Below are positions 2 through 4,950 of a stretch of 64,000 nucleotides of DNA, one piece after another. The notes under the pieces are model-generated. The model saw only the letters and a list, made by a program, of their open reading frames with translations. It had not been told where the DNA came from and ran no database searches. Both the position numbers and the translations under genes were made by a program. This stretch comes from a virus, in IMG/VR virus record IMGVR_UViG_3300025121_000776, positions 122,856 through 186,855 of that record. One strand, given 5' to 3'. Within the stretch, counting starts at the first letter, position 1. Every line of letters starts with the position of its first letter.

Positions 2-1003
2 GCTATTGCTGATTTTCCCCCAAAAGAAATTAACATAAGTGGAGGAGACCCATTAACTCTTCCAGCTGACCTTCATATTGAAATTTTAAGGATTTTAAAA
101 CAGTCAGAAATAGTCTGCAAAATTATTGTTAATCCAAAATCCATTAAAAACCCATTATCTGCAGCTTTTGAAATTGTTAAAATGTATGATTGGGCTGGAA
201 TTTCTATTAATACCCAAAAAGAATTACAAATCTTTGAAGATATCGCAGAAACTAAAGAATATGAAAATTACACCGTCATAACAAATTTTAACATTCAAAA
301 TCTTTATCAATTTGAAGAAATTGAAGCGTTTGTTAAAAAATATGATAAAATGTGGACAATTCAATTTACAGTTTATCAAGACAAAGATAATCCACTTGCT
401 TTATACCATCCAGATAATCAAATTGCTTTTGAATTATTACAACAAAAGGTTAATACAAGTTCAGCAAAAATAGTTCTATCAGACAATATAAGAAATGATA
501 TGCCTTGCGGTGCTGGATTTAGCTCTGTAGGCATCACATATGATGGTTATGTTATTCCATGTTTAAGTATGAGAAGTTGGAGGGATATTCAAAATTTATG
601 TGAAAAAGAAATATATCAAAATATTTTAAAAACTCCTTTTGAGGAAATTTGGCAAACATCTTTTATTAATGAAAGATTTTGTAAATTTGAATGTTGCAAA
701 GACATATGTCTCAATAAAACTCTCGAAATAAAAAGTTTTGAAAGAAAAGTATTTGAGATAACTCCAAAGTCTGAAGAAGAAAAAAAAGATTGGGAAAAAA
801 ACATTAATGAATTTTTAAAAAAAGTTAAAAAGGAAAATCCTCCATTTGATGCAGGGCAAGTTGTTATGTATGGGGTTATTTCTCCAAGAAATTTTCCAGG
901 TGGTGGCGGAGTTGTTATGTATGGGGTCATTTCTCCAAGAAACTACCCTCCCGATGACGACAATGGCGGCGGAATTGTTTTAATGTATGGTGTATTTAGG
1001 TAA
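2..1003 (+). CDS. Radical SAM/SPASM-domain protein (5'-truncated by window edge) with C-terminal tail of three MYG motifs
   Basis: Frame 2 is open from base 2 (AIADFPPKEINISGGDPL..., GGxP radical SAM motif). SPASM/twitch-like CGAG...GYVIPC and CKFECCKDIC. Tail reads VVMYGVISP, VVMYGVISP, VLMYGVFR. The CxxxCxxC motif would lie upstream of the window. Confidence 0.85.
   Translation, partial: AIADFPPKEINISGGDPLTLPADLHIEILRILKQSEIVCKIIVNPKSIKNPLSAAFEIVKMYDWAGISINTQKELQIFEDIAETKEYENYTVITNFNIQNLYQFEEIEAFVKKYDKMWTIQFTVYQDKDNPLALYHPDNQIAFELLQQKVNTSSAKIVLSDNIRNDMPCGAGFSSVGITYDGYVIPCLSMRSWRDIQNLCEKEIYQNILKTPFEEIWQTSFINERFCKFECCKDICLNKTLEIKSFERKVFEITPKSEEEKKDWEKNINEFLKKVKKENPPFDAGQVVMYGVISPRNFPGGGGVVMYGVISPRNYPPDDDNGGGIVLMYGVFR
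860..1000 (+). repeat. In-frame tandem repeat encoding VVMYGVISPRN x2 plus a degenerate third copy
   Basis: gttgttatgtatgggg(t/c)... units at 860-891 and 911-942 differ at one base; third ATGTATGGTGTA near 983. Confidence 0.95.
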
Positions 1004-1033
1004 TCTCTTTTCTTAATTGTTATATTTGTTTCT

Positions 1034-1061
1034 AAAAAATCCTCCAGTTGGAGGATTTTTT
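1034..1061. terminator. Intrinsic terminator, probably bidirectional
   Basis: aaaaaatcctcc-agtt-ggaggatttttt immediately after the radical SAM stop. Confidence 0.85.
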
Positions 1062-1090
1062 CTCTATTTATTGTATATGCATATACTGCT

Positions 1091-1255
1091 ATGGAAAATA
1101 AAATAGATAGAAAAACATGTGAAAGTTACTTGCAAAACATTAGAAATGGAAATAATTTCTATAACAAAGAAACAATAGATGATATGATTAAGTGTTACAT
1201 TGAAACCGAGGAATATGAGAAATGTAATGAACTAATAAAGATAAAAGAAAAATAG
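1091..1255 (+). CDS. Small protein (54 aa) with UvrB/UvrC-like coiled-coil motif
   Basis: Hand-translated MENKIDRK...IETEEYEKCNELIKIKEK; too short for the ORF track. Confidence 0.55.
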   Translation: MENKIDRKTCESYLQNIRNGNNFYNKETIDDMIKCYIETEEYEKCNELIKIKEK

Positions 1256-1773
1256 CTATGGAATATAAAAAAACTATTCGAAAATATATAAAAGAAGCTA
1301 TTGACGATTTACTGCCAGGTGAACTGACCCACTCACAACTTTATTGATGAATGGGCTTCTTTGACGTTTCTCAGACTCGTCTTATGACCGATGCCTCACC
1401 GCCTTTTTGTTTATCCTGCGAAGAATGTCCCTTATCCTCCACAGCAATGCTTTTTTGTTTTTTAGATTTTATAGCAAACAACAATTCGTTTGCCAACCAC
1501 AATATCTCAAAGAACTTTAAATTAAATATATTAAAATTTTATAAAAATATAAACACTTTTGTGAAACTATTTTAAAATAATTTCGTGTATTTGTAAAAGT
1601 AATGGCAACTTATCCAAGCCACACTTTGTGATGACTTGGTTTTTTTTGCTGAAAATTTTATAAATGGAGAAATTCCACAGAAAATAAAAGATTTATTAAA
1701 TTTGTCTTAGAGCTATAACATTTTTTAGTTTTTTTCGTATATGTTAAAAACATGTACAATTAAATCAAAAAAA

Positions 1774-2694
1774 ATGTCACAAGGAAATTCGCTAAAAGCT
1801 GTAGTTGTTGCATTATTTAGCAATGCATTTATCGCACTAATCAAATTTATAGTTGCATTTATAACTACCAGTGCCGCTATGATGGCTGAAGCGATTCACT
1901 CTACTGCAGATTGTATGAACCAAATATTTTTATTAATTGGGTCTAAGAGAACCAAAAAAGTAGCCAATGAGCAACATTCTTTCGGATATGGAAAAGAAGA
2001 ATATTTCTGGGGATTTATTGTTGCAACATTATTGTTCTTTGTTGGGGGTGGTTTTTCTATTTATGAAGGAATTCATAAGTTGTTTGTTCCAGAGCCAATT
2101 AAAAATGTTATGTTATCCTTTATCGTTTTAGGAATTGGAATAGTCTTAGAATTCAACTCGTTTAGAATTGCTTATAATCAATTTAAAATTAAAAATAATT
2201 CATCCTTTTACAAAGGACTCATTGAAGTGACCGATACAAATCTTTTGGTAATTTTACTTGAAGACTTTGCGGCATTACTTGGATTAATAGTTGTTTTAAT
2301 TACCACTATTTTAGCTTTTACAATAGCTCCTATATTTGATGCAATTGGTTCCATACTTGTGGGTGCAATTCTTATTTCAATCGCTTATATGCTCTCTAAT
2401 GAGCTCAGAAAATTAATTGTTGGAGAAAGCATTCCTAGAGAAATAAGAACTGATATAAAACACATCTGCTCACAGCATAATAAAATTGTTAAACATGTAA
2501 ATAAAATTCAAACAATGTTTATTGGCAGAGAAAAATTTGTTCTTCTTATATCTTTGGATGTTTATGATAATATTTTAGCATATGATGTAGAAAACATAAT
2601 TGAACACATAAAACTCGATATTATCAAAAAATATCCCAATGCTTCGGTTATTTATATTGAAGTAAAGGATATGATAAGAAATAATAAAATTTAA
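1774..2694 (+). CDS. Cation diffusion facilitator (CDF) family metal transporter
   Basis: Six hydrophobic segments; AEAIHSTAD, HSFGYGKEEYFW and EDFAALLG motifs; soluble C-terminal domain; start moved to MSQGN. Confidence 0.9.
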   Translation: MSQGNSLKAVVVALFSNAFIALIKFIVAFITTSAAMMAEAIHSTADCMNQIFLLIGSKRTKKVANEQHSFGYGKEEYFWGFIVATLLFFVGGGFSIYEGIHKLFVPEPIKNVMLSFIVLGIGIVLEFNSFRIAYNQFKIKNNSSFYKGLIEVTDTNLLVILLEDFAALLGLIVVLITTILAFTIAPIFDAIGSILVGAILISIAYMLSNELRKLIVGESIPREIRTDIKHICSQHNKIVKHVNKIQTMFIGREKFVLLISLDVYDNILAYDVENIIEHIKLDIIKKYPNASVIYIEVKDMIRNNKI

Positions 2695-3167: not shown

Positions 3168-3757
3168 CAAAAGGAGTTAGAGTCGAAAATAAAAAAACTT
3201 TAAGATTAATCAGTGATTTAAGGTCTCTAAATATTTCTTTTTCGAAAATTGCCGAAATTTTAAACAGACAAGAAATTAGAACTATTTATGGAAAAAAATT
3301 TGACGAATCTTTGACTTTTACAAAGTATAAACAAGCAATGAAAGAAGAAAGAGAAAACGAAGTAATTCCAACCAAATGTATTGAGTGTCAATATTATCGT
3401 GAAATGATGTTTACTCCCTGGTGCGCTCATTACCATTGGAACTGGAAGCCTACATCCAATCTTCTTATTGTTACAAAAGAGAATAGAAACGGACCGCTCC
3501 CAGAAAAATGTCCCTTTGTTTTGACCGAGAATAAAACATTGGTCTATTTCGATATTCCAGAAAATGGAACTTTTATTCACTTAGATGAATTTATTAAGGG
3601 GGTTCACAATGGCACATTTACCGATGAAAACTGCACAGCATTCAAGTCTACAAGACAAAGAATAACTCATATACCTATTTGTCCCTCAGACGTTTTAAAA
3701 AAAGTATATAATTTATCACCGAGCTGTGTGATTTGGTTCCCGAAACAATTAACCTAA
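3164..3757 (+). CDS. Hypothetical protein, N-terminal HTH-like segment
   Basis: SFSKIAEILNRQEIRTIYGKKF resembles a recombinase-type HTH. Confidence 0.55.
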   Translation: MTKGVRVENKKTLRLISDLRSLNISFSKIAEILNRQEIRTIYGKKFDESLTFTKYKQAMKEERENEVIPTKCIECQYYREMMFTPWCAHYHWNWKPTSNLLIVTKENRNGPLPEKCPFVLTENKTLVYFDIPENGTFIHLDEFIKGVHNGTFTDENCTAFKSTRQRITHIPICPSDVLKKVYNLSPSCVIWFPKQLT

Positions 3758-3765
3758 AAATAATC

Positions 3766-4950
3766 ATGGAAGAAAAACAATTAATCGAAAAATTTAAAGT
3801 GGCAGGAATAGTTTCAATCAGAGACTTTCTTTTAGAAATGCAAGCAAAAGGCGAAAAAATAGCAAGAACAGAATCGGGAGACCCCTCATTCGATATCCCA
3901 GAAAATGTTAAAGTTGCAATCGAAAAAGCACTCAGAGAAAACAAAACTCACTACACCGCAGGTGCAGGAATAAATGAGCTTAGAGATGCCATCTACGAAA
4001 AAGTTAAATACGTTAATAAAATAAACATTAACTCAAGAAATAGTGTTATGGTTACTAATGGCGCTATGAATGCTTTATATACAATATTTCACGCTATAAA
4101 TAACAATGAAGGTGTTTCTATGTTAGTTCCTTCTCCTACTTGGACAGAAACCGCACAGAATATATCAGAAGTTGGGGGAACTCCAATATATTACAATTTT
4201 AATCCATTCTCAGATGCTCCCATAGATATTGATGAGTTAGAGGTTTTGTTTAAAATATACCCCAACATCAAAGCTATGGTGATTAATTCACCTCACAATC
4301 CTACTGGAAAAATTCTTGACCTTGCTATGATTCTTAAAGTCGTTGGTTTCTGCAAAGCACACGATATCTATTTAATATCAGATGAGGCTTATGAACATAT
4401 TATCTTTGATAATTTAAAGCATGTTAGTCCAGGACAATTAGACTATGATAAAATAATTTCCATTTTTTCATTCTCTAAATCCTATGCAATGTCTGGACTC
4501 AGATTGGGATGCGCCTGCACAAACGACCCAATAATCTTAAAAAGACTTTCTAAAATTATCCGTTGTACAATTAATGGGGTAAATTCTGTTACACAATGGG
4601 GGGGAGTATCTGCAATATTAGAAACTCCAAGTGAATACATTGAAAAGAATTTGGAAGAATATACAAAAAGAAGAGATGCAATCTATGAAGCTGCTTTAAA
4701 TAATAAATATCTTGAACCAGTTAAGCCAGAAGGGACTTTTTATCTATGGTGCAAAATCAAAAATGAATGGAAACCAGAAATCGTTGAAGATAGGGGTTGG
4801 CACATGATATTAAACCTTTTAAAGCTCGGTGCAGGAAGTGCTCCTGGTGAAGTGTTTGGTCCTGAAGGAAAAAATCATATTAGATTTTCCTTCTCATGTT
4901 CAATGGAAAATGTTTTGTTGGCTTCTGAATTACTGAATAAATTAGAATAA
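3766..4950 (+). CDS. PLP-dependent aminotransferase, class I/II (aspartate aminotransferase-like)
   Basis: GDPSF, YTAGAGINELR, INSPHNPTG, ISDEAYE, SFSKSYAMSGLRLG (PLP lysine), PGEVFG, HIRFSF. Confidence 0.92.
   Translation: MEEKQLIEKFKVAGIVSIRDFLLEMQAKGEKIARTESGDPSFDIPENVKVAIEKALRENKTHYTAGAGINELRDAIYEKVKYVNKININSRNSVMVTNGAMNALYTIFHAINNNEGVSMLVPSPTWTETAQNISEVGGTPIYYNFNPFSDAPIDIDELEVLFKIYPNIKAMVINSPHNPTGKILDLAMILKVVGFCKAHDIYLISDEAYEHIIFDNLKHVSPGQLDYDKIISIFSFSKSYAMSGLRLGCACTNDPIILKRLSKIIRCTINGVNSVTQWGGVSAILETPSEYIEKNLEEYTKRRDAIYEAALNNKYLEPVKPEGTFYLWCKIKNEWKPEIVEDRGWHMILNLLKLGAGSAPGEVFGPEGKNHIRFSFSCSMENVLLASELLNKLE

Follow-up and report, generated by a model that had tools for sequence, protein, structure and literature searches.

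In this study we identified a phage gene whose product appears to unite a radical SAM enzyme and its own substrate in one chain. The gene opens a 64,000-nucleotide stretch of viral DNA (hereafter the window), which covers positions 122856–186855 of the 186,855-bp linear virus record IMGVR_UViG_3300025121_000776, estimated to be 57% complete. The encoded protein, P0001 (379 amino acids (aa)), is a radical SAM/SPASM protein that carries three hydrophobic-Tyr-Gly-Val motifs on its C-terminal tail, and our comparisons place it in the branch of SPASM enzymes to which the spliceases belong. We put at roughly 0.55 the probability that P0001 is a natural, phage-borne and spliceotide-like fusion of a splicease with its precursor in a single polypeptide. 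Related proteins were found in more than 190 clusters at ≤50% identity (190 representatives of 50%-identity clusters with E below 1e-30, and 110 close clusters in a second database), which points to a widespread and unrecognised phage function.

The phage enzyme and its motif-bearing tail

The first open reading frame (ORF) of the window is genuine and open at its 5' end, and the remaining 137 nt lie upstream of the window, giving a full gene at L001:1364–2503. The recovered start supplied the CxxxCxxC motif (CFNNCSYC, giving C19, C23 and C26) that the sequence-only reading had expected in the missing part, whereas the RRE domain that it had thought possible there found no match in Pfam. Both the Radical_SAM (1.4e-9) and the SPASM (1e-5; 26.1 bits vs a gathering score of 21.5) matches of Pfam exceeded their gathering scores. 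The three cysteines and the SAM-binding S59-G60-G61 were invariant in an alignment of 136 sequences, which identifies the protein as a radical SAM enzyme. Of the cysteines in the SPASM region, C215, C233, C277, C278 and C282 are kept in the family and C273 is variable. A full SPASM domain has seven cysteines and two auxiliary clusters; the phage profile also gave a weak match to the one-cluster twitch domain of BtrN.

From the letters of the window, the sequence-only reading had described a charged helix after the SPASM domain, three MYG motifs on the enzyme's own C-terminus, a recent DNA duplication within this tail, a terminator after the gene and no separate precursor downstream, and all of these were borne out (Table 1), the terminator as a terminator-like hairpin; the leader-like role that it had suggested for the helix is no more than a possibility. 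The tail of P0001 reads VVMYGVISPRNFPGGGG-VVMYGVISPRNYPPDDDNGGG-IVLMYGVFR. The two copies of the 33-nt repeat, which hold motif copies 1 and 2, are identical at 32 of 33 positions (97%), and their sole mismatch is synonymous. The hairpin, with its 12-bp stem and T run, is the only terminator-like site in L001 1200–2800. The 54-aa ORF downstream of the gene contains no tail-type motif, and no other multi-motif ORF was found in the 186,855-bp record (five motif matches in 70,368 aa of ORFs, three of them in the P0001 tail). A search for stand-alone short peptides carrying tail words recovered only the window's own fragment.

The AlphaFold2 (AF2) model was confident for residues 1–290 and for the helix (mean predicted local distance difference test score (pLDDT) 86.7); the helix signature DW(K/E)K..EE is conserved among near relatives only. 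The closest solved folds were mostly peptide maturases (PqqE, CteB, SuiB and SkfB), followed by MoaA and viperins, with TM scores of about 0.5; the top Foldseek match, PqqE, reached only 0.47. A complex prediction of the core (residues 1–325) with the tail (326–379), run without controls, gave a score of 0.14 (mark 0.32) and counts as evidence neither way.

The phage origin proposed from the sequence alone was likewise upheld. The record carries a baseplate wedge PHROG, which marks a tailed phage and rules out a giant virus, and contigs of P0001 relatives carry a gp44 clamp loader. All six inspected contexts of family members were phage-like, on contigs that reach 455 kb. A tblastn search of the GenBank phages (INPHARED) gave no match.

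Family proteins are about 330–430 residues long, and their tails cannot be aligned outside the motif. The motif itself is present in the tails of 180 of 184 relatives, with one to six Y[GA] sites each, so that homologues do keep a YG-type tail. In these 184 relatives Y[GA] occurs 2.7 times per 100 aa in the tails vs 0.17 times in the enzyme bodies, a 16-fold enrichment. Upstream of the Tyr, the family logo has V (41%), T (20%) or I (13%) at position −3, M (21%), Y (12%), V (11%) or I (11%) at −2, and V (32%), M (23%), L (14%) or A (13%) at −1; downstream it has G (60%) or A (39%) at +1 and V (81%) at +2. When motifs were defined by their flanks, Tyr was found in 251 of 252, Gly or Ala in 251 of 256 and Val in 251 of 280. 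Sites are mostly spaced 10–13 aa apart, and the first lies some 45 residues beyond the last Cys motif. A glycyl-radical (RVxGY) reading of the motif was rejected because Gly never precedes the Tyr, the residue there being V, M, L or A.

Five representatives (P0158, P0184, P0189, P0214 and P0216) have an extra copy of the motif at residues 2–10, directly after the start codon (for example MTILYGV or MSSIMYAV), and a linker of about 40–60 residues then leads to the radical SAM core. Mapped on a 178-member family tree, the N-terminal copy requires four changes, at least three of which are forced by well-supported branches. These copies argue that the motif is a portable, position-independent linear element and not a portion of a folded C-terminal domain.

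Two apparent exceptions to the presence of the tail, P0031 and P0073, retain it and so confirm the rule. In P0031 (L007:3001–6517, GCA_036681025.1) the SPASM domain and the linker are parted exactly at their junction by an IS605-type element, with an antisense TnpB and a Y1 TnpA followed by a Dam methylase gene. The outcome is a natural split form, in which the enzyme ORF (299 aa) stays intact and the tail makes a 131-aa ORF (L007:6124–6517) with an ATG of its own and two Y-G sites. In P0073 (L008:2117–2240) an in-frame TAA lies in an A-rich run and the tail resumes in the same frame, as far as VMVYGI; this TAA may reflect an error in sequencing, a nonsense mutation or read-through. The tails of P0015 and P0026 end in ..DDLPF, which we take to resemble the acidic C-terminal tip of bacterial SSB (..DDDIPF), and most other tails end in low-complexity sequence rich in Lys, Asp, Glu and Thr.

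Table 1. Coordinates of the radical SAM gene, its parts, neighbouring features and Y-G/Y-A proteins at cellular loci. Positions are those of the window unless a locus (L) is given.
Feature	Position	Strand	Details
Gene start, 46 residues including CxxxCxxC (C19, C23, C26)	L001:1364–1501		Upstream of window
Radical SAM/SPASM gene, in-window part	2–1003	+	Residues 47–379 and stop
SPASM/twitch-like auxiliary-cluster region	506–709	+	Residues 215–282; Pfam SPASM and conserved columns
Charged helix between SPASM region and motifs	773–835	+	Residues 304–324; AF2, block pLDDT 92 and 87
Recent duplication, spacing 51 nt	859–942	+	33-nt direct repeat, 859–891/910–942
Motif copy 1, VVMYGV	860–877	+	Residues 333–338; Y336 invariant in 136-sequence alignment
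Motif copy 2, VVMYGV	911–928	+	Residues 350–355; Y353 in at least 90% of sequences
Motif copy 3, VLMYGV	977–994	+	Residues 372–377; two residues ahead of stop
Terminator-like hairpin	1034–1061 (L001 2534–2561)	.	Palindromic, 12 pairs, A/T-run flanks, 31 nt past stop
G+C island	1301–1450		46% G+C vs about 25–30% in surroundings; short ORFs only
Cation-diffusion-facilitator transporter gene	1741–2694		Cation_efflux, 6.7e-38; auxiliary-type
Class I/II aminotransferase gene	3733–4950		1.9e-47; auxiliary-type
TTCGTATA motif, three copies	L003:8189–13900 (window −4667 to 1044)		0.36 copies expected in 14.5 kb
Two paralogues at TIGR03913 locus	L187:152–1222		PLYAA / PLYAV, 8–9 residues ahead of SGDL
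P0222, 232 aa, beside TIGR03913-like enzyme	L188:643–1341		About eight X-Y-G/X-Y-A sites, ending TMLYAV
Repeat protein	L191:6898–7337		VTKYGAN three times (VTKYGANIGC)
Repeat protein	L192:5138–5974		VMKYGAN and KPLYAAH, four times each
Repeat protein	L193:5077–5976		Six mixed motifs
Repeat protein	L195:5696–6319		Four KYG[FY]P-type sites

Kinship with spliceases and their cellular relatives

Genuine spliceases were fetched for comparison by a TIGR04103 search over 401 genomes of the cyanobacterial phylum, reached via a 16S primer pattern, of which 21 exceeded the cut-off. In the 20 loci that were read, the enzymes (416–437 aa, 805–861 bits to TIGR04103) lay beside Nif11-type precursors with X-Y-G-V cores, and TIGR04103 is therefore confirmed as the type I splicease family. 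The 40 cores, of which QAMYGVVISDN is an example, have L (67%) or M (15%) at −1, Y in all cases, G (97%) at +1, V (80%) at +2 and V (60%) or I (30%) at +3. The comparison with splicease precursors that had been drawn from the MYG motif thus extends further, as it is X-Y-G-V, beyond X-Y-G alone, that is common to these cores and the phage tails (QVVMYGVISPRN). Published splice tags include GAVAAGYGVVFPG (PMC10533398). A DNA pattern back-translated from a PlpA3-like tag, AVAAMYGVVFP, had no match in the genome contigs.

Among curated collections, no PHROGs, Pfam or NCBIfam family is specific for P0001, whose best NCBIfam matches reached 25–35 bits. TIGR04133 was the commonest NCBIfam match among the 80 family members searched (79 of them, best E 2.9e-15), and TIGR04103 matched 67 of the 80 (best E 5.4e-11). 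P0001 scored far below the cut-offs of the PqqE and MftC families (25 bits vs 381 for TIGR02109 and 18 vs 265 for TIGR03962).

Profile comparisons point to the splicease-related branch. An hhalign comparison of the phage family with the spliceases gave a probability of 98.7 and an E value of 2.5e-16 over 251 columns at 23% identity. The hidden Markov model (HMM) of the phage family scored spliceases at 46–56 bits, a TIGR03913 enzyme at 43 bits, the relative of the latter at L188 at 76 bits and nine unnamed radical SAM/SPASM proteins of low-GC genomes at 74–89 bits. By comparison, 13 other SPASM enzymes from five genomes, including a true PqqE (L162/L176) at 24 bits, stayed at or below 26 bits, and the best of all solved structures scored 28.7 bits. 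The splicease HMM in turn gave 164–441 bits for the cellular relatives vs at most 144 bits for the 13 other SPASM enzymes.

These scores go together with two sequence signatures, WEIT..C...C..CGS and W(Q/T)IQxT, which occur in the phage family, the 20 spliceases, the nine unnamed relatives and two TIGR03913-type enzymes and are absent from the 13 other SPASM enzymes. Across the phage family the signature residues W13, E14, T16, G27, S28, W164, Q167 and T169 vary little or not at all. In a quick IQ-TREE analysis, phage members (28), unnamed relatives (9) and spliceases (7) fell on one side of a branch with an SH-aLRT support of 91, the three groups being unresolved among themselves. Signatures, profiles and tree thus agree in assigning P0001 to a splicease-related SPASM branch that comprises spliceases, TIGR03913 enzymes and the unnamed relatives.

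Proteins with Y-G or Y-A sites also adjoin cellular members of this branch (Table 1). They include two paralogues at a TIGR03913 locus, a neighbour of a TIGR03913-like enzyme, and repeat proteins at four of eight unnamed radical SAM/SPASM loci (L191–L193 and L195), whose enzymes come from small low-GC genomes within the sampled cyanobacterial phylum. The Y-A form, seen in 39% of motifs of the phage family, therefore accompanies cellular branch members as well. Judging from these neighbourhoods, the TIGR03913 'GDL' systems and L188 are likely to be spliceotide-type pairs, and L191–L193 and L195 are candidates for new splicease-substrate pairs. A review (PMC10849128) sums up a 2022 survey as having spanned 189 bacterial genera in which radical SAM enzymes have YG-rich neighbours, 27 of the pairs being confirmed.

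Probable self-modification and alternative readings

As a fusion of splicease and precursor, P0001 would consist of three parts: a splicease-branch radical SAM enzyme, a putative docking helix and three hydrophobic-Tyr-Gly-Val cores. Richter et al. (2024) extended PlpX and RhaX at the C-terminus with an activating helix (PMC11414181), and the putative docking helix of P0001 (residues 304–324) occupies the matching position. In the same study cores were accepted N-terminally, C-terminally or internally (PMC11414181), which fits the N-terminal motif copies of the phage family. It seems probable that the substrates of the radical SAM domain are the Tyr motifs, either in its own tail or in that of a sister molecule. 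For the nature of this reaction we are more cautious: the chances that it is the splicease reaction, in which a tyramine equivalent (C8H9NO, −135 Da) is lost overall, may be a little short of even.

Within the branch, only spliceases have been characterised (PMC11414181, PMC11626197, PMC10533398), and they are the sole known route to ribosomal alpha-keto-beta-amino acids, which serve both as a warhead in protease inhibitors and as a bioorthogonal handle (PMC10533398, PMC11626197). Spliceotides are known to inhibit proteases (PMC11626197). Protein-borne ketoamides arising from the reaction might capture serine, cysteine or threonine proteases of the host in the course of infection, a suggestion that we regard as speculative and rather doubtful. 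The release of ketoamide peptides, which the sequence-only reading had put forward, would be speculative as well. Equally tentative is the notion that hundreds of large-phage lineages make a single-turnover pro-inhibitor, an enzyme that converts the Tyr motifs of its own disordered termini into several alpha-ketoamide warheads against host proteases. The targets of such a pro-inhibitor would be housekeeping Lon/Clp-type or defence-associated host proteases.

Several observations weigh against reading P0001 as a splicease-precursor fusion. Its match to TIGR04103 amounts to 32.2 bits vs a cut-off of 725 and covers residues 9–89 only, a level that radical SAM enzymes in general, those of E. coli and B. 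subtilis among them, reach in 12 of 14 control genomes, with none over the cut-off. On this score P0001 falls outside the type I splicease family; of the splicease-like character that the sequence-only reading had given it, membership of the branch stands, on signatures, HMM and tree, whereas membership of the PlpX family proper does not. With the splicease HMM, phage members reach just 11–47 bits, less than some unrelated SPASM enzymes do. The phage clade hangs on a long stem (1.31), support for its grouping with the spliceases is moderate (SH-aLRT 91 in a quick search), and the outgroups were few and included no TIGR04133 member. The SPASM Cys pattern is truncated, (C)x3CCx3C vs Cx2Cx5Cx3C...C in spliceases, and for this reason the auxiliary-cluster chemistry may differ from theirs. 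The published definition of spliceases rests on X-Y-G, yet 39% of the phage motifs are Y-A, on which we found no data in the accessible literature. AF2 places the motifs at pLDDT ≤66 without a docked strand; in the monomer the blocks of motif 1 average 58–66, motifs 2 and 3 are mostly below 50 and the tail is modelled as disordered. Lastly, a stoichiometric self-modifying enzyme is unusual, and no protease or exporter gene accompanies the radical SAM gene.

An alternative explanation, which we consider unlikely on balance, is that the tail is a self-substrate for some other chemistry, be it a Tyr-to-Val C-C crosslink spanning Y-[G/A]-V (a cyclophane as in triceptides), a C-alpha/C-beta lyase reaction at the Tyr or an epimerisation of hydrophobic residues. 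Triceptides follow an omega-X-X three-residue crosslink motif, and the aromatic, small and beta-branched residues of the phage motif (Y, G/A and V at 81%) would suit this too; yet splicease cores also have Val at +2 (80%) and no known crosslink. The long branch of the phage clade and its altered SPASM Cys pattern would fit a different reaction, as would the frequent Y-A, unlike type I splicease cores with their 97% G. The characterised enzymes of the branch, among which we found neither the nearest unnamed relatives nor TIGR03913, are all spliceases. Moreover, the radical SAM core of P0001 begins at about residue 10 and lacks the N-terminal RRE domain of 3-residue cyclophane enzymes, so that the protein does not have the layout of a triceptide maturase. 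Three-residue cyclophane families were absent among the NCBIfam matches of P0001 and the 80 family members, and neither a cyclophane nor an epimerase family was among the better matches.

A somewhat slimmer chance attaches to the idea that the Tyr motifs serve tethered docking, autoinhibition as a pseudo-substrate or self-association, the real substrate being a host protein or another phage protein. With the record only 57% complete, a separate substrate could be encoded in the portion still lacking or by the host. The model shows disordered tails, short multivalent motifs at one or the other terminus would also fit binding modules, and a self-consuming catalyst is uneconomical. However, Tyr occupies 251 of 252 motifs, with neither Phe nor Trp ever taking its place, an uncommon degree of constancy for a motif that does nothing but bind, and the same motif marks the separate substrates of cellular relatives and true spliceases. 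Nor did we find a second multi-motif ORF in the 186 kb, or a conserved neighbour or partner gene in the four phage contexts examined besides that of the window; the 162-aa ORF upstream of P0001, for example, is unrelated to the 157-aa ORF upstream of P0007. A PlpY-like gene, as the PlpXY-type kinship of the sequence-only reading might have led one to expect, was not found among these neighbours.

That the repeats are a neutral low-complexity expansion or a gene-calling artefact is highly improbable, since, although copies 1 and 2 derive from a very recent duplication, it is contradicted by the conservation of the motif across the more than 190 clusters in otherwise unalignable tails and by its 16-fold enrichment over the enzyme bodies.

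If P0001 is indeed a splicease-precursor fusion, it would be the simplest such system, a natural enzyme-helix-core fusion without partner genes, akin to the constructs built by hand in 2024 (PMC11414181), and the substrate rule would widen from X-Y-G to X-Y-[G/A]-V. The pro-inhibitor, if true, would add a new class to the counter-measures of phages and would be the first case in nature of a radical SAM enzyme that shares one polypeptide with its precursor. Our literature search, which covered the 2022 survey through a review, turned up no account of a splicease that is fused to its precursor or carried by a phage.

Genomic setting and comparison with known systems

The virus, with a G+C content of 29.6%, derives from groundwater metagenomes and is present in three samples from two studies; none of the sequencing runs listed for it holds RNA. 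The three copies of the TTCGTATA motif fall within 14.5 kb, and one of them heads a co-directional run made up of an isochorismatase-like gene, vWA, PP2C and kinase genes, the 162-aa ORF and the radical SAM gene. Because this run stops at the hairpin, the radical SAM gene may close a unit of six genes; this linkage is not retained in the relative L004. Rfam searches of window positions 1000–1800 gave only sub-threshold leader-like matches, which reflect the terminator hairpin. The G+C island lies between the 54-aa ORF and the cation-efflux gene and has no Rfam match, and the transporter and aminotransferase genes of Table 1 both lie just downstream.

Like the spliceases (PlpX/PlpY/PlpA, PcpX, RhaX/RhaA, RcsX and RasX), the phage family combines a radical SAM with a SPASM-type domain, has the WEIT..CxxxCxxCGS, WQIQxT and RF signatures, and bears a hydrophobic-Y-G-V motif of the kind found, often in multiple copies, in splicease substrates. 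Unlike them, it holds enzyme and cores in one polypeptide and has neither a Nif11 or NHLP leader nor a Y protein. Its motif is hydrophobic at −2 and −3 in place of Q-P and has Y-A in 39% of cases, and we found this form on phage contigs only. The TIGR03913 enzymes and the unnamed relatives (L187, L188 and L191–L195) resemble the phage family in having substrates with both X-Y-G and X-Y-A, but they have separate substrate genes and a canonical Cx2Cx5Cx3C SPASM domain and reside in cellular genomes.

A precedent for the fused architecture is found in the borosins (OphMA-type) of fungi and bacteria, in which an N-methyltransferase carries a C-terminal core peptide and modifies itself. Only this architecture is in common, as borosins have a SAM-dependent alpha-N-methyltransferase fold and the phage domain is radical SAM/SPASM. 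Engineered X-leader fusions (PMC11414181) come close in another respect, with a helix next to the C-terminus of the enzyme, as at residues 304–324 of P0001. In contrast to the phage proteins, however, the engineered PlpXY fusion and RhaX-A-leader (Richter et al. 2024) are man-made and have their core on a separate target protein.

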